The notes under the pieces: generated by a model
Told to the model about the DNA's origin: nothing
What the model saw: the letters and a program-made list of their open reading frames with translations, nothing else
Database searches by the model: none
Program-made: the position numbers and the translations under genes
Shown here: positions 23,627-44,939 of the stretch, piece by piece
Position numbering within the stretch: the stretch's first letter is position 1
Layout of the letters: each line of letters opens with the position of its first letter
Source: an uncultured Candidatus Saccharibacteria bacterium
Lineage (GTDB): Bacteria; Patescibacteriota; Dojkabacteria; B142; OLB20
Direction: 5' to 3'
Length of the DNA stretch: 64,000 nt
Assembly (NCBI GenBank): GCA_964461915.1
Contig: CAYWVD010000001.1
Coordinates: 235,168-299,167 of the forward strand

Positions 23627-24301
23627 TTAACTTTTACTTAAATCTTGTTTAACTTCGTCAAAATCTTTGCGCCAGATTTTGCCGTCAAACCACTCGGAGT
23701 TATTGAATTGAAGTTTGTAAATATCCGCAGGTCTTGATAGAGTGCCGATATAAAAATATTGTTTATGATTATCGATTGCATATTCTATTGCTTTTAGAAT
23801 CATTCCCATACCCATATTATTCGATACTTTTTCAAATTCATAAAAGGGATATGCATAATGCATTAACGATGGATTTTGATAACAAATTGCATAACCAAAT
23901 CTTTCGTCATTAAAAGAATATTCTAATAAGGAATTGAAATTACTACGATTGGGATCAGTTACTAAAGATTTGATAGTTGATGCGGAAAAAGTTTTTTCAC
24001 CGAATTTTTTGGTGTAGAAATCTTTACCGATGCGGTGAATATTCCAATCATAGGATTCTTTTGCGATTGGCAAAGGTAAATATTTTAGAGTTAAACCATC
24101 AACCTTTCTTAAAACTCTTCGATTTTCACTGGTAAAAGTGAATCCCCTCAAATCAATCCGAATTAATCTGGACTGATACATTGACCCCTTAAACTTTCTA
24201 GAGAACAAATACCCTTTGTCATAAAAGATTGATGCCTCAACGGGATCAGATCCACTTATTGTTTTTTCGTCCCAAATAAAATAATTACTCATTGATTTCA
24301 A
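23627..24301 (-). CDS. Arginyl/leucyl-tRNA--protein transferase-like protein (Bpt/ATE1 C-terminal domain, tentative)
   Basis: C-terminal YFYIGTLSRPADIYKLQF..EWFDGKIW resembles the ATE_C pattern (Y.GYY...KM.YK..F.P.E.L..G.W). Weak. Confidence 0.35.
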   Translation of the reverse strand: MKSMSNYFIWDEKTISGSDPVEASIFYDKGYLFSRKFKGSMYQSRLIRIDLRGFTFTSENRRVLRKVDGLTLKYLPLPIAKESYDWNIHRIGKDFYTKKFGEKTFSASTIKSLVTDPNRSNFNSLLEYSFNDERFGYAICYQNPSLMHYAYPFYEFEKVSNNMGMGMILKAIEYAIDNHKQYFYIGTLSRPADIYKLQFNNSEWFDGKIWRKDFDEVKQDLSKS

Positions 24302-34862: not shown

Positions 34863-35537
34863 TTAAATAGATAAAGACATTTCGGGAATAATTATCGATG
34901 GCTCTTTTTCTTGTAATGAAACTAACAAAACACCAAATTCCAAAATTTGAGGAAGATTCAAATCAATATATTCCCAGCATTCTTCAGCCTTCTCTGGTCT
35001 TGTATAGTTAGAAATGTTTAAATGGTTTGCAATACAGTCTGAATCTTTTATTTCGTTTATTTGGACATGATCTGTTATTTCTTTAACTTTTCTAACATTT
35101 TCTAGATAACTTTCGTTATCATTGATACCATACTTTTTCATTAATTCATCACACTTCTGATATAAACTCATTAAGTATTTATTATTTTCAAATAACAATG
35201 CTAACCAATAATAATCCTTGTTCATTAGATGATTGGCACTTTGAAATTTCTTGGTCAAAACCCATTCATTTCTCTTAATAACAAACCTGTGTTCTTTTGC
35301 TAATTCGTTTAATACTATTTCCAGGTCTTCAATTTCATTGGTTCTAAACTGACCTATTGTAATATGTGGCGTAGCGCCATGGGGTTTTATCGTAAATCTT
35401 GAACCATTTGAATAAACTTCATCCTTGATCTTCTGGATTTGTTCAATATTAAAAGGTTTAATTAGTATATTTCCTGTCATAGCTTTATTTTGAATACCAT
35501 TCTCTGAACTGTAATTAAATTGACATATTCGTGGCAT
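34863..35537 (-). CDS. Hypothetical protein (possible 2H-phosphoesterase-like; one HxT motif only)
   Basis: ORF with a single H-I-T-I motif (PHITIGQF). No second HxT/S, so unassigned. Confidence 0.3.
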   Translation of the reverse strand: MPRICQFNYSSENGIQNKAMTGNILIKPFNIEQIQKIKDEVYSNGSRFTIKPHGATPHITIGQFRTNEIEDLEIVLNELAKEHRFVIKRNEWVLTKKFQSANHLMNKDYYWLALLFENNKYLMSLYQKCDELMKKYGINDNESYLENVRKVKEITDHVQINEIKDSDCIANHLNISNYTRPEKAEECWEYIDLNLPQILEFGVLLVSLQEKEPSIIIPEMSLSI

Positions 35538-36260: not shown

Positions 36261-37004
36261 ATTAGGGTCTTGTGAAGATTAGAGAGGATTTTGACTCAAC
36301 TCTTTCATCAACACTTTGTATATATTATCACTTCTGTGGTTAAAACACCACTCGGATTCTTTCAAATGTAAAATAAACTTATTTTTAGGCACTCCATTAA
36401 ATTGTGCTATTCTTCTTTTAGCATAACTCCAAAAACTTTCTATACCGTTTACATGATTTTTTCCACGAGCAAATTCATCCTTCGAATGATATATTCTGTA
36501 ATGCTTGTATCCATTTAAAACTAAACTATCATAGCTTGTCCAACCATCCGTATATATCGTACTATCCTCAAGTATTTTACCCTTAATTATCGGCATTAAC
36601 TGCTTCCTTTTACAATTCTTGACGATAACCGTATATACCTTACCATTACGCTTCAACAATCCAAATACAGGAACTTTACCTTTAGCTCCACGACCTCTTT
36701 TACCTCGTATTCTTTTAGCTCCAAAATATGATTCATCTGCTTCTATTTCACCTGATAACTTTTCTTCATTTTCTGTTAGTTGAAATATTCTTAATCTTAA
36801 TTTTTGATAGATATCTGAAATTGTTCTCCTTGAAATTCCGGTTAATTTACTGGTCTGAGTTGAGTCAAAATCCTCTGTAAAACACCTTAGAATCTGTCTA
36901 AATTTTGCCTCTGAAATCTTTGAACGGTTTGTGTACTTGTTTTTCATTGTCTTGCAAGGTATTTTACCACATTTACAACGTGCTATTCTTCACAAGACCC
37001 TAAT
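36261..37004 (-). mobile_element. IS1595-family insertion sequence (about 744 bp) with ~18-bp terminal inverted repeats; transposase CDS 36279..36947 on the minus strand
   Basis: Transposase has an N-terminal HTH/zinc region and a DDE_Tnp_IS1595-type core (TDGWTSYD ... NHVNGIESFWSYAKRR). Left end ATTAGGGTCTTGTGAAGA at 36261-36278 is a perfect reverse complement of TCTTCACAAGACCCTAAT at 36987-37004. Confidence 0.75.
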
Positions 37005-37268: not shown

Positions 37269-38276
37269 ATGATAAATACTAAGTACAAACTAAGCCAAAA
37301 ACTCTTAGAAAATATCTCCTCTATTGAAAGACTCTACGGTCAATTAGAATCACAAGTAGTTCCGAAAGAATTACTTCTTAACCTAGAAGAACACAATCTT
37401 GTTAAATCATCCTTTTCTTCTAACAGTATAGAAGGTAACCCACTCTCTCAAGAAGAAGTTACTAATTTAATACTTGGAGGAAGAGTCCCGGCAAACAGAG
37501 ATGAAAAAGAAGTAAAGAACTACTTTAATATCCTAAAACAGATAGGGAAAGAATATGATACTTTGAATATAGATACCATACTTACTATCCACAAACAACT
37601 TTTGCAAGGAGTTGAGAATCAAATAGGTGGTGAGATTAGAAATAGTAAGGTTGTTGTAGGCAATCCTGCTCAGGATGGAAATATTGTTATCAAACATGAA
37701 CCACCAAAACATACCAAGGAAGAAATTACAAAACTTCTAGAGGAGTTAATAGAATGGACAAATATATCTGAGGAATTACCCATACTAAGAGCAGGAATAT
37801 ACCATCATGAGTTTGTATATATTCATCCTTTTGTAGATGGCAATGGTAGGACTTGCAGATTAACTACTACACTCCTTTTGAATAAGTTAGGATACAAGAT
37901 AAATAAGTATTTTATACTTGATGATTACTATGATATAGATAGAATACAATATTCTGACTCCTTACATTCTGCTGATAGTGGTGATAAGACAGAATGGTTA
38001 GAGTATTTTACAGATGGTGTTAAATATTCTTTACAATCTGCATTAGCTAAGATAGAGGAAGGACTAAAGAACATCTCTTTTGATATGCGACCTACAAACA
38101 GAGAGAAAGATGTTTTGGAATTAATAAAGAAGTACAAAGAGATTACTTCTTCTGATGTTGCAAAGGATCTTGATGTGTCTAGGCAACAGGCTTTTAATCT
38201 TTTAGATGGTTTAGTTTCAAAGGGTTATTTAGAAAAACAGGGTAGTACTAAAAATAGTTTTTATACCTTAAGGTAG
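37269..38276 (+). CDS. fic: Fic/DOC family protein (AMPylation-type Fic motif) with N-terminal inhibitory-helix motif and C-terminal winged-helix-like domain
   Basis: Canonical Fic motif HPFVDGNGRTCR. N-terminal SNSIEGN fits the (S/T)xxxE(G/N) inhibitory motif. Confidence 0.85.
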   Translation: MINTKYKLSQKLLENISSIERLYGQLESQVVPKELLLNLEEHNLVKSSFSSNSIEGNPLSQEEVTNLILGGRVPANRDEKEVKNYFNILKQIGKEYDTLNIDTILTIHKQLLQGVENQIGGEIRNSKVVVGNPAQDGNIVIKHEPPKHTKEEITKLLEELIEWTNISEELPILRAGIYHHEFVYIHPFVDGNGRTCRLTTTLLLNKLGYKINKYFILDDYYDIDRIQYSDSLHSADSGDKTEWLEYFTDGVKYSLQSALAKIEEGLKNISFDMRPTNREKDVLELIKKYKEITSSDVAKDLDVSRQQAFNLLDGLVSKGYLEKQGSTKNSFYTLR

Positions 38277-38325
38277 TTTTTGTTTCCAAAGGATACGATT
38301 TTGCTCTGTTATCGAAACTAAATAA

Positions 38326-39531
38326 TTTATACCAACCACAATATTTATACACGAACATCTCTTAAAAGCATATCTCTCGTCTAGAAAAAACAAACGAAAT
38401 ACCATTAATGCACTAAAATTTGAAATTAACTTAGAACAAAATCTCTCTAATCTACAAAACGAGATATTACTTCACACCTATAAACCATCTAGATCAATAT
38501 GTTTTGCTGTAACATATCCAAAAATTAGAGAAATATTTGCTGCAGATTTTAAAGACAGAATTGTACATCACTTACTAGTATCATATTTAGAACCATATTT
38601 TGAAAAAAGATTTATCTACTCATCTTTTGCCTGTAGAAAAGAAAAGGGAACTCTTTATGCAACTACGTATATACAGAAATGTTTAAGAAAAGTAACTAAA
38701 AACTCTACTAAAAAAGCCTACTATGGACAGTTTGATATTAAAAGCTTCTTTACAAGTATAGATGGGAAAATTTTAGAAGAGATCTTAATTAGTAATATAC
38801 AAAAAGGGTTTCATGGTAGTTTACAAAATGAATTAATATGGTTAACAAAAGTAATACTAGAAAACAATCCCACTCAAAACTATACAGTAAGAGGAGATAT
38901 TAATTTACTCAAACAAGTACCCTCTCATAAGTCTCTTTTTAATGTTTCTAAAAACAAAGGTCTACCGATAGGGAATTTAACATCGCAGTTTTTTGCCAAT
39001 ATATATCTAAACGAATTAGACCAGTATGTAAAAAGAGAATTAAAAATTTCCTACTATACTAGATATGTAGATGATATGGTTGTACTCTCTGATAACCTTG
39101 ATGATGTGTATATATGGAGAGAACAGATAGATACATTTTTAAAGAAAAAACTTAAACTTACTCTACACCCTAAAAAAGATAAATATGGCTCTGTATACTC
39201 TGGAATAGACTTTCTAGGGTATGTAATTAAGCCTAGATATACTCTCTCAAGAAAAAGGGTCGTAGGTAATCTAAAAAACAAACTAAAACTTTTTAATCAA
39301 GGTCTTTTACTAATATCACAAAATCAAAAACAGATTACCCTACCTCTCCATACACCCCCTTCGAAAGAGGAAATTTCTAAAATGTTAGCTATGATTAATT
39401 CTTACTATGGTCATTTTAGACATGTTAACTGTTTTAATTTAAGAAAGGATATATATGAGAATCACTTTGGTTGTTTAAAAGAATACTTAGAGCCTGTAGA
39501 ACAGTATTCATATTTTAAATTAATAAAATAA
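38326..39531 (+). CDS. Diversity-generating retroelement reverse transcriptase; the frame is open from 38326 but has no ATG/GTG/TTG before the RT domain (the ORF track shows only the 39076 ATG fragment)
   Basis: Frame-1 translation gives RT motifs DRIVHHLL, YGQFDIKSFFTSIDGKILEEIL, GLPIGNLTSQFFANIYLNELD (the DGR-specific IGxxxSQ instead of QGxxxSP), YTRYVDDMVV (YxDD), and the thumb/X-like motif INSYYGHFRH. It sits next to the Avd-like gene and the TR. Confidence 0.8.
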   Translation, partial: FIPTTIFIHEHLLKAYLSSRKNKRNTINALKFEINLEQNLSNLQNEILLHTYKPSRSICFAVTYPKIREIFAADFKDRIVHHLLVSYLEPYFEKRFIYSSFACRKEKGTLYATTYIQKCLRKVTKNSTKKAYYGQFDIKSFFTSIDGKILEEILISNIQKGFHGSLQNELIWLTKVILENNPTQNYTVRGDINLLKQVPSHKSLFNVSKNKGLPIGNLTSQFFANIYLNELDQYVKRELKISYYTRYVDDMVVLSDNLDDVYIWREQIDTFLKKKLKLTLHPKKDKYGSVYSGIDFLGYVIKPRYTLSRKRVVGNLKNKLKLFNQGLLLISQNQKQITLPLHTPPSKEEISKMLAMINSYYGHFRHVNCFNLRKDIYENHFGCLKEYLEPVEQYSYFKLIK

Positions 39532-39536
39532 TATAT

Positions 39537-39896
39537 ATGGGTAGTACAAACAATTTGCCTTTGTACAGGAGTGTGTACAAACTTTTAATATATCTTTACT
39601 CTTTAATTAGTAATTTCAAGAAAGAGTATAAATATACATTGGGTCAATCGATAACGGATTGTGCTTGGGTTGTATTAGATAGTGTAATTATTGCTAATAC
39701 CCTACCTAATTTAAAAAAGAAAGAGTATATATTAAAAGCTAGTAATCATTTTGATATGCTTAAGACTCGTATTAGGGTAGCACATGAATTAAAACTAATA
39801 GATAACAGAAGATATACTTTCATTGTTAATCAGTTTGAAGATATAGGTAAGATGTTGAATGGTTGGTATAGATGGAGTAGTAAAGCCCAAAGCTAA
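39537..39896 (+). CDS. avd: Avd-like DGR accessory protein (four-helix-bundle family)
   Basis: 119 aa, predicted helical. The C-terminal IVNQFEDIGKMLNGW matches the conserved ending of the four-helix-bundle/Avd family. Lies between the RT and the TR. Confidence 0.6.
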   Translation: MGSTNNLPLYRSVYKLLIYLYSLISNFKKEYKYTLGQSITDCAWVVLDSVIIANTLPNLKKKEYILKASNHFDMLKTRIRVAHELKLIDNRRYTFIVNQFEDIGKMLNGWYRWSSKAQS

Positions 39897-39899
39897 GTA

Positions 39900-40020
39900 C
39901 CGGGATACACAACGAACTCCGTTGTTTGTATTTGTCTTATTGTTGTTGTTGGTATTTCCATTGTTTAGGTTTACGTTCCATGCGTTTGTTGAATTGTTGG
40001 AGACCTCCGAGCTAGACCAA
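39900..40020 (-). repeat. DGR template repeat (TR), 121 bp, adenine-bearing sense strand is the minus strand
   Basis: 121-bp near-identical copy of 40310-40430. All 23 mismatches are T in the TR (plus strand), which is A on the minus strand. The TR in target frame encodes 12 AAC/AAT codons. Confidence 0.9.
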
Positions 40021-40236
40021 CGCTAACATTTTTCTACTAACTTGTTTACCACTGTAAAACTGATTAATATTTCAACTAAAAAGTTTAACTGTATTTAAAT
40101 ACCTATTAGGTGTAGTAGAACGGACTTAAATATTTGGGCTTTCTCTACTATCTATTGCCTACAGTGAGGTTAAATAGTAGACTCCATGCACTAAGATATT
40201 ACAATTCTAATTAGAAAATATCAAGTATCAAGAGAT

Positions 40237-40267
40237 TAAAAAACAACCCCTCCACTTTGTGGAGGGG
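40237..40267 (-). terminator. Rho-independent terminator downstream of the DGR target gene (minus strand)
   Basis: Perfect 9-bp stem CCCCTCCAC/GTGGAGGGG with a 3-nt loop at 40247-40267, followed on the minus strand by TTGTTTTTT. Confidence 0.5.
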
Positions 40268-40303
40268 TAAATTAAAAATTACTAAATTACTAAATTCTGG
40301 TTT

Positions 40304-41587
40304 TTAGTCCCGGGATACACAACGAACTCCGTTGTAAGTATTCGTCTTAGCGCTGTAGCTGGTACCGCCAAAGTTTAGGTAGACGCGCCATGCGTAAGCC
40401 GAATAGTAGGAGACCTCCGAGCTAGACCAATAGAGAGTATCTGTAACAAATGCTGCTGCAGATTCCTCATCTATACCCGCCTGGTTATATATCCCATCTA
40501 TATATGCTTGCATCAATTCTTTTTGAGAAGGTAAATACCAATCTGTTCTTCCTGCAAAATCTAATGTCGCACAGTAGTTTATTGCTAAACCGCAATCAGA
40601 ATCTAAACCATCATATGAACTTCTAGGTATTGAAGTAAAGTAATCACATGAAGCCATAGTAAAAATATTTGACATAGTACCTTGGTCTGCAGACCAATAT
40701 ACTCCAGTTCTCTCATCTCTCCATGCTATATCCTCTCCTACTGACATATTACTCCACTCTGACTCTTCTCCTTGATAGTCATCAGTTAATGTCCCTCCCC
40801 ATCCAAGATAGTCACCTCCAGCATAATCATCATATGTACTGTATTGCATATTTGTAAAATCTATAGGTGTTGGAGGTGTATATGTACCTGTTAGAAGAGT
40901 ACCTGAGTCAGAGTAAAACTTCTTTCCACTAATTACCTCATCTACTCTTGCATCTCCCAAAAATGACCAAGTACCTGTTAGTAATGTTCCAGAATCAGAA
41001 TAGAACTTCTTACCACTCATTACATCTGTAACTTGTGCATCACCTAAATATGATACTACTGGAGGAGTATATGTCCCTGTCTTTAATGTACCTGAATTAG
41101 AGTAAAATGTCTTACCTGCTAGTACATCACTAGTACTTGCATTTCCTCTGTATGTTACTGTAGGTACAGTAGGTAGTTTAAGAGTACCTGCTAAAAGTTC
41201 ATCATCCTCTGAGTAAAACAGTTTCCCCTCTAATACATCCTCTGCAGATGCATCACCTAAAAATTCAAACTCTTCAGGAACATATGTCCCAGTTTGTAAA
41301 TCTCTAGAATTGTTGTAAAAAGTTTTACCCTCTAATACATCACTCGTAGTAACAGTACCACTAGGAATCCAATTAGAAGCCTCTTGTACCTTTTCAACCA
41401 TCGAATCTAAATCAACATCAGAAAGTTCTTGTGTATATCCTAATTCTACTAACTTACCATATATACCCCTAACATCTTCCTCTAATTGAGATACATCAAC
41501 TTCTTTACTTGGTTTGAAAAAGAGAAACATTATTACTGCTGTAATAACGACACCTAGTAGAAATGAAAAAATATGTTTTTTATTCAT
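40304..41587 (-). CDS. DGR target (variable) protein: N-terminal signal anchor, five ~22-aa tandem repeats (DVLxGKxFYSxSGTLxTGTY), C-terminal DUF1566/C-type-lectin-like domain carrying the VR
   Basis: N-terminal TM (FSFLLGVVITAVIMFLFF). The repeats are VLEGKTFYNNSRDLQTGTYVP, VLEGKLFYSEDDELLAGTLKLPT, VLAGKTFYSNSGTLKTGTYTPP, VMSGKKFYSDSGTLLTGTWSF and VISGKKFYSDSGTLLTGTYTPP. The C-terminus TDWYLPSQKEL ... YWSSSEV ... AWRVYLNFGG ... GVRCVSRD fits the DUF1566/CLec pattern. Confidence 0.85.
   Translation of the reverse strand: MNKKHIFSFLLGVVITAVIMFLFFKPSKEVDVSQLEEDVRGIYGKLVELGYTQELSDVDLDSMVEKVQEASNWIPSGTVTTSDVLEGKTFYNNSRDLQTGTYVPEEFEFLGDASAEDVLEGKLFYSEDDELLAGTLKLPTVPTVTYRGNASTSDVLAGKTFYSNSGTLKTGTYTPPVVSYLGDAQVTDVMSGKKFYSDSGTLLTGTWSFLGDARVDEVISGKKFYSDSGTLLTGTYTPPTPIDFTNMQYSTYDDYAGGDYLGWGGTLTDDYQGEESEWSNMSVGEDIAWRDERTGVYWSADQGTMSNIFTMASCDYFTSIPRSSYDGLDSDCGLAINYCATLDFAGRTDWYLPSQKELMQAYIDGIYNQAGIDEESAAAFVTDTLYWSSSEVSYYSAYAWRVYLNFGGTSYSAKTNTYNGVRCVSRD
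40310..40430 (-). repeat. DGR variable repeat (VR), the last ~40 codons of the target gene
   Basis: See TR. The VR codons at TR-Asn positions now read Y, T, A, S, Y, S, G, F, Y, R, Y, A, Y, Y and so on. The identical 3' flank (coding sense) contains the hairpin ACAACG-GAGTT-CGTTGT. Confidence 0.9.
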
Positions 41588-41689
41588 TTAATATATATAT
41601 ATAACAAATTAATACTTCTTTAATGTTTTAATGGTATCAGAATGTAAAAAATAAAACAATACAAGGGGTGGGTCATAGGACAATACTAT

Positions 41690-42424
41690 GGGTCTAGACT
41701 AGTTTAGAGAGGATTTTTTCTAAACTCTGAAAGAAGTATATCATAAATATTTTCATTTCTCAAATTCCATCTGAACTCTGACTCTTTTAAATGAAGATGA
41801 AACATTTTATCATTTAATCCATTAAATTTTGCTAACCTTCTTTTAGTATAACTCCAAAACGATTCTATCCCATTAATGTGTGTCTTACCACGAGCAAATT
41901 CATCATCACTATGATACACACGATAATGGTCATATCCGTTAAGAATTAATCCATCATAACTTTTCCATCCGTCTGAATATATTGTAGAACCTTCTAGTAC
42001 TTTACCTTGGATTATCGGCATCAAATGCTCTCTTTTACAATTCTTAACGATGTTTACATAAACCTTACCATCCTGTTTAAGAATACCAAATACAGGAGTT
42101 TTTCCCGCTGCTCCACGTCCTCGTTTACCTCTTACACGCCTTGCTCCAAAGTATGACTCATCTACCTCAAACTCTCCTAACTCTGGTGTATGAGCAACAC
42201 TCATCTGAGCTATACGCACTCTGAAAAGATAGTAAAGTCTGTTTACTGTATTACGATTAACTCTAGAATATTTTGATGCTTTTGTTGCGGTTTCATCTTC
42301 GGCAAAATACTTTAAAATTTCCCTAAATTTTCTCTCCGAAATATGTGCTTTATTTAAATACTTATTTCTTATTGTCATAGACTTAATTATACGAGTTTTT
42401 ACTCTATTAAACTAGTCTAGACCC
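41690..42424 (-). mobile_element. Second, distinct IS1595-family insertion sequence (about 735 bp) with 17-bp terminal inverted repeats; transposase CDS 41704..42378 on the minus strand
   Basis: Transposase is a paralog of the first (roughly 60% identical by eye; same motifs SDGWKSYD, THINGIESFWSYTKRR). Left end GGGTCTAGACTAGTTTA at 41690-41706 is a perfect reverse complement of TAAACTAGTCTAGACCC at 42408-42424. Confidence 0.75.
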
Positions 42425-42708: not shown

Positions 42709-43401
42709 TCACTCTTCATTACTTTTACCCCAATTGCATTTTTGACATAGTGTTTGTAAATTTTCCAGACTTGTTTTACCTCCTTTTGAAAAAGGTTTTA
42801 TATGGTCAATGTGTAAAACAGTTCCATGATGAGTTGCTGGGCTTTTTCCACAATAGACACAGCAGAAATTATCGCGTTGCAAAACTTTGAGTCTTAATTT
42901 TAGTGGAATATCACGTTTTAATTTTGAATCTTTCGTGTTGATAGGCGTATTTGGAACCTCAGATTTTTGCTTTGTTTCTTCAACAACAGATTCCCCGGTT
43001 TTATATTCGAGAAATTTCATGCAAGCGTTTGTCCAGCCATTAAATCTTGCTTTGTATGTTGAGTATGAATATTTGGGCTTAACTAAATCCCATTCGGTTT
43101 TTGATGGCCTGTGGCCTAATTTTTTCCAAACTTTATCTAATTCCTCAAACAGCTCTTTCTCGGATATAAAACTTCGATCAGTTTCTCGTGGTTTAAGTTC
43201 TACGCCTATTGAATCTAGCGCCTTTTGCCAAGTTCCAAATACGCCGAGTACTTTTGTACCCTTACAAAGTTTTGCAACTTTATCAAATTCGTGCCGAGTG
43301 AATTTTGTATAATCAAAAAGCCCAGCAACTCTTTTAAGTTCTTTTATGACATCCTCTTTGGATATAGTGTCTATTCTTTTTCTGGAAAATTTATAACTCA
43401 T
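42709..43401 (-). CDS. HNH endonuclease-domain protein
   Basis: C-terminal HNH motif CCVYCGKSPATHHGTVLHIDHIKPFSKGGKTSLENLQTLCQKCN. Confidence 0.6.
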   Translation of the reverse strand: MSYKFSRKRIDTISKEDVIKELKRVAGLFDYTKFTRHEFDKVAKLCKGTKVLGVFGTWQKALDSIGVELKPRETDRSFISEKELFEELDKVWKKLGHRPSKTEWDLVKPKYSYSTYKARFNGWTNACMKFLEYKTGESVVEETKQKSEVPNTPINTKDSKLKRDIPLKLRLKVLQRDNFCCVYCGKSPATHHGTVLHIDHIKPFSKGGKTSLENLQTLCQKCNWGKSNEE

Positions 43402-43555: not shown

Positions 43556-44368
43556 ATGAAAAGCGAACTGGACAGAACCATACGAGAACTAAAAATACGC
43601 AATTACAGCCCCAAGACTATAAAAAGTTATACAAATGGGCTCAGTAAATATTTCAGCTACAAAAGAAAAAACATTGATAAGCTAGATACAAACAACATTA
43701 AAGACTTCCTACTCTACTGCAAAGATAAAAACATTTCAGCCAAAACGAGAAATCAGTATCTTAATGCTATCAAATACTATTATTACAATATCATCAATGT
43801 AACAGATAAAATTGATGTAAAATCCGCTAGACGAACTAAAAGCCTTCCAGTTATCCTGAGTAGATCCGAGATTAAAGCTTTGATCGAAGCCACAAACAAC
43901 CAAAAACATAAAATGTTGCTTGCAATAGCGTATGGAGCTGGGTTACGAGTTAGTGAAGTTGTAAACCTTAAAGTGAAAGATGTAAATCTTGAGGACCTAA
44001 CACTGCATATCAAACATGCAAAGGGAGACAAAGACAGAATAACCATTCTTTCAGATAGTATAAAAGACAAGTTAAACAAGATCATTAGTACTAAGGAAGC
44101 AAATGAATATGTTCTTTCTAGCGAAAGAGGTGGGAAACTCACAACCCGTACAGCTCAAAAGATTTTCTCAAATGCACTTAAAAAGACTGGTGCCAAAAAG
44201 GATGCTTCTTTTCATTCCCTCAGACACAGCTTTGCTACTCACTTGCTGGAAAACGGCACAGATATTCGTTATGTACAAGAATTATTAGGCCATGTAAACA
44301 TCAGAACTACTCAAAGATACACCCAAGTCACAAATCCTCGCTTACGAAATATAAAGAGTCCACTTTAA
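43556..44368 (+). CDS. int: Tyrosine site-specific recombinase/integrase
   Basis: Catalytic R..H..R..Y context (FHSLRHSFATHLL ... LGHVNIRTTQRY). N-terminal SAM-like domain. Sits adjacent to the tRNA cluster. Confidence 0.8.
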   Translation: MKSELDRTIRELKIRNYSPKTIKSYTNGLSKYFSYKRKNIDKLDTNNIKDFLLYCKDKNISAKTRNQYLNAIKYYYYNIINVTDKIDVKSARRTKSLPVILSRSEIKALIEATNNQKHKMLLAIAYGAGLRVSEVVNLKVKDVNLEDLTLHIKHAKGDKDRITILSDSIKDKLNKIISTKEANEYVLSSERGGKLTTRTAQKIFSNALKKTGAKKDASFHSLRHSFATHLLENGTDIRYVQELLGHVNIRTTQRYTQVTNPRLRNIKSPL

Positions 44369-44531: not shown

Positions 44532-44608
44532 TGGTCGGAGCGGTGAGACTCGAACTCACGACCTTACGCACCCCATGCGTACATTCTAGCCAACTGAACT
44601 ACGCTCCG
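44532..44608 (-). tRNA. tRNA-Pro (anticodon GGG), CCA encoded
   Basis: Reverse complement folds: acceptor cggagcg/cgctccg, D-arm gttc..gaat, anticodon stem tacgc/gcgta with loop auGGGgu, T-arm gtgag-ttcgagt-ctcac, A, CCA. Confidence 0.8.
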
Positions 44609-44700
44609 GAAATATATGTAACATTTTATCAAATAAGCTTTAAACAAGAAATAGTAATATGATAAAATAGATCAGTTTGTTTTAAGTTTGTTCTACTTAA

Positions 44701-44783
44701 GCCGAGGTGGTGGAATGGTAGACACGCTACCTTGAGGTGGTAGTGCCCGAAAGGGTGTGCAGGTTCAAGTCCTGTTCTCGGCA
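44701..44783 (+). tRNA. tRNA-Leu (anticodon GAG), long variable arm, CCA not encoded
   Basis: Near-duplicate of the tRNA-Leu(TAG) at 29750. Anticodon stem ctacc/ggtag with loop uuGAGgu. Ends ...cctgttctcggca then tga. Confidence 0.8.
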
Positions 44784-44862
44784 TGATCTTTTCAAATTTG
44801 GGCAAGTTTATTCCCAAATAAAGTATTTTTTGTTATACTTACAAAATCCTATACTTCAAAAT

Positions 44863-44939
44863 GGGATCGTAGCTCAACTGGTTAGAGCACTCGCCTGTCA
44901 CGCGAGAGGTTGCGAGTTCGATTCTCGTCGGTCCCGCCA
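44863..44939 (+). tRNA. tRNA-Asp (anticodon GTC), CCA encoded
   Basis: Acceptor gggatcg/cggtccc, anticodon stem ctcgc/gcgag with loop cuGUCac, T-arm gcgag-ttcgatt-ctcgt, G, CCA. Confidence 0.85.

Follow-up and report, generated by a model that had tools for sequence, protein, structure and literature searches.

The diversity-generating retroelements (DGRs) closest to the locus described here are those of Bordetella phage BPP-1, Legionella pneumophila and CPR bacteria. In the BPP-1 element (mtd-avd-TR-brt), which belongs to a phage and has all its parts on one strand, a reverse transcriptase (RT) and the accessory variability determinant (Avd) accompany an adenine-specific transfer from the template (TR) to the variable region (VR). 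Its TR codons are rich in AAC/AAT, its repeat end is rich in G+C, a hairpin follows the VR, and the VR lies at the C-terminus of a C-type-lectin-fold target of the Mtd type. A structured spacer, Sp (~140 nt), lies 3' of the TR, and the order of elements in the Bordetella RNA is primer strand, stop-duplex strand, short stem-loop, thumb ring and bRT-binding stem-loop (Handa et al., bioRxiv 10.1101/2023.10.23.563531). The Legionella pneumophila DGR represents the DUF1566/'CLec2' VR class (Wu et al. 2018, PMC5758913); avd-TR-RT are on one strand of a proteobacterial genomic island, Avd is the sole accessory gene, and the VR, with a motif of the kind WSSxE...AW.V.L..G...GVRCV, is found in the DUF1566/Lcl_C domain of the surface-anchored lipoprotein LdtA. 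The CPR DGRs (Wu et al. 2018, PMC5758913; clade 2 of Roux et al. 2021) are cellular elements of Patescibacteria, each with one target beside it; among the 48 architectural variants reported, B3, TR-(avd)-RT, dominates in CPR bacteria, and their VRs are often unclassified. A DGR clade restricted to Patescibacteria has been described (Roux et al. 2021, PMC8144416).

The locus at positions 38326-41587 of the window, by which we mean the whole 64-kb stretch of DNA that was analysed, shares with BPP-1 the RT family, Avd, the adenine-specific transfer, the AAC/AAT-rich TR, and the VR at the C-terminus of a lectin-like protein; its G+C-rich repeat end and the hairpin after its VR may likewise correspond to those of BPP-1. 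It differs in being chromosomal, in having TR and target inverted relative to RT and avd, in carrying structured RNA 5' rather than 3' of the TR, and in its Lcl_C/DUF1566-type target. The class of target domain, the kind of VR motif, the surface anchoring and the sole accessory gene are those of the Legionella element, whereas an N-terminal membrane anchor, tandem repeats of ~30 residues, the inverted TR and the CPR host set it apart. Like the CPR DGRs it is cellular and has one adjacent target, but here RT and avd are co-oriented with the TR inverted, and the VR is clearly of the Lcl_C/DUF1566 type. The arrangement of RT and avd facing an inverted TR and an inverted VR-bearing target recurs: of 102 loci with a detectable TR/VR pair, 34 have a TR that runs antisense to the RT. 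Taken whole, the locus is very probably a chromosomal DGR of a CPR bacterium, acting on a membrane-anchored surface protein whose C-terminal lectin-like face it diversifies. It represents an ordinary case of a system already known, a CPR DGR; the nearest genomes to its host are those of Candidatus Dojkabacteria, to which the host probably belongs. As a DGR it adds little, since CPR bacteria are known to be DGR-rich and DUF1566/Lcl_C targets are a known class.

The sequence-only reading had placed all four DGR parts within this interval, and the TR/VR alignment and the Pfam matches bear it out for each of them. The RT gene (38341..39531, plus strand; 396 codons counted from an ATA at 38341) was read as DGR-type from the motifs DRIVHHLL, DIKSFF, GLPIGNLTSQ, YVDD and SYYGHF; all are present in its translation, which matches Pfam RVT_1 (2.6e-17). 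The motif (I/L)GxxxSQ is diagnostic for DGR-clade RTs, and YVDD is of the catalytic YxDD type. Among solved structures the best match was the Bordetella phage bRT 8ub7 (E 8e-33), with retron and group II RTs far behind (~1e-8), and many of the ~8000 homologues come from Patescibacteria. The downstream 119-residue protein (39537..39896, plus strand), thought to be Avd-like, matches Pfam bAvd at 8.4e-17 (62.1 bits, cut-off 40) and NCBIfam DivGenRetAVD at 6.5e-20 (71.4 bits, slightly under the cut-off of 80). On the opposite strand, the target gene (40304..41587, minus strand) encodes 427 residues with a hydrophobic N-terminal helix (residues 3-24), four or five repeats of ~30 residues of the form SDVLxGKxFYSxSGTLxTGT, which also form a DNA repeat family, and a domain (residues 290-424) matching Pfam Lcl_C, formerly DUF1566, at 7.3e-16. 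The AF2 model has pLDDT > 90 for residues ~280-427. DGR proteins carry their variable residues on a fold of the C-type-lectin or Ig kind. The proposed lectin-like fold of the C-terminus was supported by a Foldseek search, in which the Legionella Lcl C-terminal domain 8q4e came first (E 1.4e-4), followed by C-type lectin-like proteins that included snake-venom C-type lectins, with modest TM scores of ~0.5. The VR, which had been described as the last 40 codons of an anchored DUF1566/CLec-like protein, covers codons 387-426 in phase (40310..40430, minus strand), and in the model it forms the 3' end of a C-type-lectin-like domain.

A repeat search of the window detected a direct repeat, 39896-40020 and 40306-40430, with 81% identity, and no second VR occurs in the 64 kb. 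The TR (39900..40020, minus strand) is antisense to RT and avd and contains 48 adenines in 121 nt, mostly in AAC/AAT codons; in 22 of its codons the first or second position is A. Aligned in register on the minus strand, the 121-nt core gave 23 mismatches between TR and VR, all 23 at TR adenines, reproducing exactly what had been reported from sequence inspection (hypergeometric P = 9.3e-12). Both repeats end in GTGTATCCCGG and then diverge into unrelated sequence, beginning with the first mismatch at a base other than A (TR T, VR G, 39899/40309), one base outside the core. A G+C-rich hairpin occurs ~36 nt downstream of the VR and none occurs after the TR; the spacing from VR to hairpin is larger than in the Bordetella element. 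The defining features of a DGR that were looked for in silico, namely a DGR-type RT, an Avd, a TR/VR pair differing at TR adenines and a VR ending a lectin-like domain, were all found, and the parts are all present and intact.

The adenine-directed mutagenic homing that had been proposed, and the population check suggested for the VR, could be addressed with public assemblies. A contig from another sample (L176), 98.6% identical to the window over 2802 nt, has an identical TR (121/121) and an identical leader 5' of the TR, while its VR differs at 25 positions, all 25 of them TR adenines. These account for 25 of the 36 substitutions between the two sequences, and another four fall in the adjacent 7 nt. 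The protein alleles P0121-P0128 follow the same pattern, their VRs varying at residues templated by adenines; among the six alleles P0121-P0126 (95-100% identity), 12-15 of the 16-21 differences lie in the VR, nearly all of them at residues of A-containing codons. The relatives L002, L004 and L006 each have an A-only TR/VR pair of their own. Since a near-identical strain carries the same TR with a VR changed at 25 of its adenines, the element has been recently active, and the comparison indicates that adenine-mutagenic retrohoming operated recently. The locus is thus a clean natural example in which near-identical strains from different samples retain a frozen template and a rewritten variable region, which shows the element to be active in a CPR genome of ~0.8 Mb; the host is presumably dependent on surface contacts with hosts of its own. 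Target codons 384-386, which immediately precede the TR homology on its 5' side, were also seen to vary between strains, and these the present TR is unable to template.

Beyond the first reading, the analysis brought out an RT lacking a canonical start, an antisense TR that needs a separate transcript and structured RNA around the TR. The open RT frame begins at 38326, behind a TAA at 38323-38325, and ends with the stop at 39529-39531; in the ORF listing no ATG, GTG or TTG occurs before codon 246 counted from the ATA (codon 251 of the open frame). Initiation at ATA is rare in bacteria. The absence of a usual start codon from the first 245 codons could be taken to mean that the element is decaying and inactive, its start lost by a change of ATG to ATA and its TR/VR differences left as fossils of past activity, and in the close relative L004 the RT frame is indeed interrupted (83-residue ORF from the ATA, 253-residue gene-caller fragment). 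Against this, the ATA at 38341 aligns with the Met of homologues and is conserved in L001-L003, L004, L005 and L086, in three sublineages with differing upstream sequences, and together with the full-length 396-codon frame it is kept in the window, L001-L003, L005 and L086 despite the divergence upstream. Codons 1-45, compared between the window and L001, show 13 synonymous and 10 non-synonymous differences, and the 25 adenine-confined VR differences beside an identical TR place activity after a very recent split. Decay is therefore extremely improbable, and the RT probably initiates at the conserved ATA, a start that may keep RT levels low by design.

Because it is the minus strand that carries the TR adenines, the template RNA has to be transcribed in minus-strand sense, and with the TR inverted relative to RT and avd it must be separate from their transcript and act in trans. 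A promoter-like site, TTGATA-17-TAATAT (40196..40224, minus strand), was identified in a consensus scan just upstream of the leader and is the putative, and probable, start of the TR transcript, even though such sites are no more frequent in the region than in shuffled sequence. The hairpin downstream of the VR (40236..40268, minus strand; 10 bp, 7 of them G-C, with a 3-nt loop and a T tract) is preserved in relatives by paired changes, CCCCTCCAC/GTGGAGGGG becoming CCCATCCAC/GTGGATGGG. It is predicted to be the intrinsic terminator of the target gene; it may also correspond to the inverted repeat that follows the IMH in other DGRs, and a plain terminator is also a plausible description. Target, hairpin, leader and TR follow one another on the minus strand, uninterrupted by any gene, the promoter call is a consensus match, and most DGRs are without a true terminator after the target (Wu et al., PMC5758913), so that the template RNA could instead come from target mRNA that continues beyond the hairpin (40268-40246), with target, leader and TR on one RNA. 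We regard this as unlikely, because the 10-bp stem with its T tract makes a good intrinsic terminator and because comparable -35/-10 pairs with 17-nt spacing occupy the same position, a few nucleotides before the first leader hairpin, in the diverged relatives L004, L006, L166 and L171. With a separate transcript, the template RNA would start at the conserved promoter-like site just downstream of the target terminator, pass through the folded leader and then the TR, and continue into avd's antisense 3' end; neither a terminator nor a defined 3' end was found for it. RT and Avd, expressed from the plus strand, would bind the template RNA in trans, and the cDNA would replace the VR by homing.

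The leader itself (40021..40193, minus strand; ~170 nt) is near-invariant among close relatives. With nhmmer it is detected in ~20 distinct loci, in every case on the strand opposite to the RT. In an alignment of 19 loci (A5), on which the covariation counts are based, it contains, from 5' to 3' on the minus strand, hairpin P1 (40181-40144), strand C5' (40141-40134), strand D5' (AGUCC, 40126-40122), strand B5' (40120-40113), hairpin P3 (40111-40101), hairpin P5/P6 (40089-40054) and strand B3' (40039-40032), the partner of B5', which ends 11 nt 5' of the TR. The 3' flank of the TR (39883..39900, minus strand) overlaps the avd stop and last codons on the other strand and also pairs with the leader, through D3' (39900-39896), at the TR 3' edge, with D5' and through C3' (39890-39883, TTGGGCTT), which starts 10 nt 3' of the TR, with C5'. 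Leader and 3' strand together have 91.2% of alignment cells paired, as against 35-49% when slid; compensatory changes occur in 43 of 51 pairs, and none of 500 shuffles was equally good. Helix C is predicted by RNAalifold unaided and has compensatory changes in 8/8 pairs with 92.8% of cells paired, and every pair of helix B likewise shows compensatory changes. The single-sequence MFE structure forms helices C and D (z = -3.2), and G-U pairs favour the TR-sense strand. Helix D, with 78.9% of cells paired and a C-U mismatch or bulge in the window itself, is so short and nearly invariant that covariation speaks neither for nor against it. Among the adenines seen to vary, the one farthest 3' is 5 nt 5' of helix D (GTATCCCGG to GTCTCCCGG in L176), and the T/G mismatch at 39899/40309 lies inside it, where it would never be copied; both positions are consistent with priming at helix D.

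The order of leader elements, namely an A(A/G)UCC strand, 1 nt, a helix-B strand, a short hairpin, a single-stranded stretch and a long hairpin, is that of the Bordetella RNA, the mapping being by order and topology and not by sequence or structural homology. The A(A/G)UCC strand would pair with GGGAC at the 3' edge of the TR to form the priming site, and a nucleotide inside the leader, beside this duplex, would prime the cDNA; the helix-B partner just 5' of the TR would block the polymerase as a stop duplex, and the long-range helix C would clamp the free 3' flank to the leader. The Bordetella-type layout of the cis RNA, a short 5' strand pairing with a structured 3' spacer, was not found: the 3' side of the TR runs directly into antisense avd, with a single 8-bp clamp strand, and the structured RNA lies 5' of the TR. 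This mismatch lowers the claim of a Bordetella-type RNA layout and not that of a DGR, as parts and order are kept and connectivity differs. We tentatively propose, as a reading that is plausible yet somewhat short of probable, that in this lineage the DGR RNA acting in cis is circularly permuted relative to the Bordetella type, with primer strand, stop duplex and protein-binding hairpins all 5' of the TR and the 3' end clamped through the antisense avd stop region. No description of a permuted or 5'-leader DGR RNA was found in Rfam or the searchable literature.

The leader matched no Rfam family, RT-associated motifs included, and the folded region between VR and TR might have no part in reverse transcription, serving instead the target gene as its 3'-UTR or as a regulatory element, or being a small RNA in its own right. 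This is very unlikely, for the leader was found only beside TRs and always in TR sense, helices B and C pair with sequences that bracket the TR and show compensatory changes in all their pairs, and in L170, where the VR is 1.7 kb away, the leader adjoins the TR and not the target. In relatives of canonical orientation, moreover, a comparable covarying helix ends immediately 5' of the TR. In such relatives, from many phyla, the TR abuts the RT start and 130-250 nt of non-coding RNA separate avd from the TR, and the 5'-spacer layout appears to extend to them.

With its different connectivity, the strongly covarying leader is a natural and independent means of testing the Bordetella RNP model with its stop duplex, primer duplex and protein-binding hairpins. 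Should a 5' layout prove general across this large RT family, the Bordetella layout would not be the rule, cis-element searches should cover sequence upstream as well as downstream of the TR, and diversification tools with template and enzyme on separate transcripts would become possible. As to coding potential, the TR-sense strand of the leader has no ORF of at least 20 residues, and the only one on the opposite strand is a 26-residue ORF starting with TTG (40134-40214).

A direct repeat with 81 % identity (39896-40020 and 40306-40430) was detected on searching the window for repeats. When aligned in the sense of the ORF at 40304-41587 (minus strand), the copies share a 121-nt core comprising a template repeat (TR, 39900-40020, 48 adenines) and a variable repeat (VR, 40310-40430), the latter forming codons 387-426 of the 427-codon target gene. 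The first base past the core is T in TR and G in VR, followed by three more common bases and then unrelated sequence. All 23 mismatches within the core fall at TR adenines (P = 9.3e-12 for 23 random mismatch positions all on the 48 adenines among 121 nt), and the TR codons matching VR codons 387-426 are mostly AAC or AAT. The sequence-only reading, which had described a diversity-generating retroelement (DGR) with a 121-bp VR as the last 40 codons of its target and 23 adenine-only differences, is borne out on both counts. Neither chance nor simple duplication would give such an adenine-only pattern, and both are rejected as the source of the repeat. A template on the plus strand, which carries the reverse transcriptase (RT) and avd genes, is also rejected, since the mismatches would then fall on template thymines. 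An adenine-masked search with the whole TR and with its last 40 nt, covering the window on both strands, recovered only the known TR and VR and no further VR or second target.

Homology searches with the target detected alleles of the 427-aa protein from other samples at 95-96 % identity. On alignment, 12-15 of their 16-21 differences lie within the 41-residue VR, nearly all at residues whose TR codons have A as first or second base. A contig of a near-identical strain carrying one of these alleles was recovered (L176, Logan SRR30949868); it shows 98.6 % identity to the window across 2802 nt. The two TRs are identical (121/121), as are the leaders preceding them, and the VRs differ at 25 positions, every one a TR adenine; the TR/VR pair of L176 itself shows 22 mismatches, 22/22 at A. 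Altogether 36 substitutions separate the strains, with 25 in the VR, 4 in the 7 nt directly 5' of it and 7 across the other 2.7 kb. Variation of the VR at adenine sites, which the earlier reading had proposed as a population test, is thus observed between strains against a fixed TR. Relatives L002, L004 and L006 each carry their own adenine-only TR/VR pair, and the locus provides clean natural evidence of DGR activity.

Variation also extends into codons 384-386 (40431-40437), adjoining the 5' side of the TR/VR homology, which read ACT CTC TAT and AAA CTC CCT in the near-identical strains and encode T/N/Q/E/K, L/I/Y and Y/P among the alleles. The equivalent flank of the present TR is AAA TGT TAG CGT. 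The TR 5' flank cannot have templated these codons, even if gaps are allowed, as the mismatches are not at adenines. Possible explanations are imprecise cDNA integration at the 5' junction, another TR at a different site of the genome and recombinational exchange of VR alleles.

The protein components described in the sequence-only reading are likewise supported. The RT frame is unbroken on the plus strand from 38326 to the stop at 39529-39531, its translation contains the motifs DRIVHHLL, DIKSFF, GLPIGNLTSQ, YVDD and SYYGHF, and it matches Pfam RVT_1. Its best match of solved structure is the RT of the Bordetella phage DGR (8ub7, E 8e-33), with retron and group II RTs at ~1e-8. The 119-aa Avd-like protein (39537-39896, plus strand) scores above threshold against Pfam bAvd and falls slightly short of it against NCBIfam DivGenRetAVD. 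The target, earlier called DUF1566/CLec-like, has a hydrophobic helix at the N-terminus and 4-5 repeats of ~30 aa each, and its residues 290-424 match Pfam Lcl_C (formerly DUF1566). Its sequence matched no solved structure with E of 1 or less, and similar structures were therefore sought by fold. In an AlphaFold2 model built with 58 homologues the C-terminal domain has pLDDT >90, and the fold is predicted to be C-type lectin-like, in line with the earlier suggestion; the Legionella Lcl C-terminal domain (8q4e, E 1.4e-4) ranks first among PDB matches, and C-type lectin-like domains, those of snake venoms among them, come next. The nearest genomic relatives are MAGs of Candidatus Dojkabacteria and other Patescibacteria, and an identical target protein is found on an 808-kb contig, which together place the DGR on the chromosome of a candidate phyla radiation (CPR) bacterium. 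A DGR as such is no surprise in a CPR genome; the closest known systems are the DUF1566/CLec2 class, of which the Legionella DGR is an example, and the DGRs that Wu et al. 2018 and Roux et al. 2021 described from CPR bacteria.

ORF calling starts the RT only at the ATG inside YVDDM, and between the stop at 38323-38325 and codon 246 (numbering from 38341) the frame has no ATG, GTG or TTG. The lack of a canonical start codon could mean that the RT has lost function. More distant homologues (60-67 % identity), however, start with MF(T/S)xExLLKAY, and the window RT reads I-F-I-H-E-H-L-L-K-A-Y, with ATA (38341) at the position of their Met. This ATA is kept in L001-L003, L004, L005 and L086, representing three sublineages, despite diverged upstream sequence, and the 396-codon ORF beginning there is intact in L001-L003, L005 and L086. 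Considering this conservation together with the evidence of recent activity, loss of function is the less likely explanation, and the data point to initiation of the RT at the near-cognate ATA, which perhaps keeps its levels low. A consequence is that gene callers truncate or miss such genes, as seen in relatives whose RT is called from an internal TTG or ATG (proteins P0001, P0002 and P0043). In L004 (3802-4992) the RT frame is interrupted, leaving an 83-aa ORF from the ATA and a 253-aa fragment as the called gene; its TR/VR pair nevertheless shows 25 adenine-site differences. The RT is intact in L005 and L086, which are near-identical to L004, and the L004 copy is either decaying or an assembly error.

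One feature missed in the sequence-only reading is the orientation of the TR with respect to RT and avd. The TR adenines are on the minus strand and both genes on the plus strand, and the TR, opposite in sense, begins 3 nt past the avd stop codon; the RT-avd transcript therefore cannot contain the template RNA. A simple TR/VR finder was run on 176 related loci from genome and metagenome collections, 102 of which have a detectable pair. The TR is antisense to the RT in 34 of these, among them every one of the closest relatives, and co-oriented with it in the other 68, so that the layout is a recurrent, inherited architecture. The orientation is not new in itself, as Wu et al. 2018 (PMC5758913) already stated that TR and RT may sit on different strands. 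Within the clade avd flips as well, being found on the TR/target strand, opposite the RT, in L171 (3689-4042) and L175 (3737-4090). Gene orientation thus changes around a constant module of target-VR, spacer and TR.

The spacer of this module, ~180 nt from the terminator of the target to the TR, is near-invariant in the window, L002, L004 and L006 and is conserved more than the adjoining coding DNA. An HMM of this leader found it in ~20 distinct loci, always on the TR-sense strand. Nineteen distinct sequences, each with leader, TR and 48 nt of 3' flank, were aligned, and RNAalifold, unaided, predicted a long hairpin P1, a long-range helix C, a helix B and hairpins P3 and P5/P6. Helix C would join 40141-40134 of the leader (AAGCCCAA) to 39890-39883 in the TR 3' flank (TTGGGCTT), both on the minus strand, with its 3' strand inside the last codons of avd; helix B would join 40120-40113 to 40039-40032 (minus strand), and its 3' strand, the latter, ends 11 nt ahead of the TR. 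Pair counts took this structure together with a short helix D. Standard pairs occur in 91.2 % of cells, compared with 35-49 % when partners are slid by 1-3 columns. Compensatory changes are seen in 43 of 51 pairs (mean of 26.4 for column shuffles, 15-30 for slid partners), and none of 500 column shuffles scores as well. G-U pairs favour the TR-sense strand (P1, 92.5 % vs 86.1 %; P5, 89.5 % vs 80.3 %), and the window sequence alone folds into the same helices (MFE -76.8 kcal/mol, z = -3.2). The existence of a folded RNA is well supported by these comparative data.

A coding role of the leader is rejected because its TR-sense strand holds no ORF of at least 20 aa. Only three ORFs touch 40021-40303, namely a 26-aa TTG ORF opposite to TR sense (40134-40214), a spurious 55-aa ORF across the TR and, on the minus strand, a 29-aa ORF that overlaps the VR end. 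A promoter-like TTGATA-17-TAATAT (40224-40196, minus strand), a consensus match only, lies a few nt upstream of P1 and has counterparts in diverged relatives. No Rfam family, including the RT-associated motifs of Weinberg et al. 2017, matched the leader at gathering thresholds or at E up to 10 in the window region and 26 related loci. The search returned only tRNAs, chance matches and a LOOT RNA (RF03000, 51.2 bits; L016 593-689) ~3 kb upstream of the RT of a Doudnabacteria DGR, with which it probably has no connection.

Of the DGR characters that gave a clear answer here, all are present except the placement of the cis RNA known from Bordetella. In the Bordetella phage RNP (Handa et al., bioRxiv 10.1101/2023.10.23.563531), the spacer lies 3' of the TR and consists of an Avd-binding stem-loop, a primer strand pairing with the 3' part of the TR, two nucleotides, a stop-duplex strand whose partner is just 5' of the TR, a short stem-loop, unpaired adenosines, a single-stranded 'thumb ring' and a long bRT-binding stem-loop. 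The leader runs through P1, a helix C strand, A(A/G)UCC (D), which is able to pair with GGGAC at the TR 3' edge, one nucleotide, a helix B strand, the short P3 hairpin, an unpaired stretch, the long hairpin P5/P6, a linker, the partner of B just 5' of the TR, and the TR. The parts come in the same order as in Bordetella, but with a different connectivity of the chain: the two ends of the Bordetella RNA are joined here, and its TR-to-spacer junction is open and bridged by helix C. It is possible, although we propose it tentatively, that the RNA is a circular permutation of the Bordetella type, and by this analogy we infer that the leader elements may represent primer, stop and protein-binding parts. 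Priming from an internal 2'-OH, as in Bordetella, would be compatible with such a permuted RNA, and cDNA synthesis could be primed at helix D. The 3'-most adenine seen varying is 5 nt 5' of helix D, and the sole non-A TR/VR difference lies inside it and would not be copied; both fit priming at D, a helix too conserved for a covariation test. The architecture could serve to test the generality of the Bordetella RNP model.

Relatives in canonical orientation, from many phyla and with the same RT family, have a non-coding spacer of 130-250 nt between avd and TR (e.g. L021 4695-4847, L027 1369-1565, L111 644-809), and in most loci the TR ends ~5-60 nt from the RT start. RNAalifold on 14 such spacers predicted a 9-bp helix between the strand after a conserved CA(C/T)TGTGCG motif and the sequence just 5' of the TR, with compensatory changes in 8 of 9 pairs. 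In view of this helix, a spacer 5' of the TR seems to be a family trait and not a quirk of one locus; a literature search found no description of this layout. RNAduplex energies of the 30 nt 5' of the TR against upstream or downstream sequence (101 loci) were dominated by base composition.

A ~183-aa conserved protein is encoded divergently upstream of the RT in L166 (2875-3426), L169 (308-862) and L172 (1890-2432). It has no Pfam match and no homologue in the window, and its copies, 48-68 % identical to one another, carry a signal peptide, repeated SGYxWSEDxGWIDF motifs and a C-terminal LPxTG-like motif with anchor. A Fic/DOC protein with a C-terminal winged-helix (MarR/TrmB-like) domain is encoded upstream of the window RT (37269-38276); it is present in L001 (2936-3943) and L172/L173 (about 433-1800) and absent in L004 and L166. 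Two IS1595/ISXO2-like transposase genes in the same orientation (36265-36947 and 41690-42378) flank the segment with Fic, RT, Avd, TR and target, and their DNA sequences are only ~72 % identical; two more 224-aa ORFs occur in the window (23627-24301 and 34863-35537). Homology between the window and L176 ends exactly at 41689, where L176 continues with an Asp/Glu racemase gene, and the right-hand insertion sequence is therefore a strain-specific insertion or rearrangement. Beyond it are found genes for an HNH endonuclease bearing homing-endonuclease-associated repeats (42709-43401) and for a tyrosine recombinase (43556-44368), as well as a tRNA gene cluster (Pro, Leu, Asp; 44532-44939), a neighbourhood that looks like a mobile-element-rich island.
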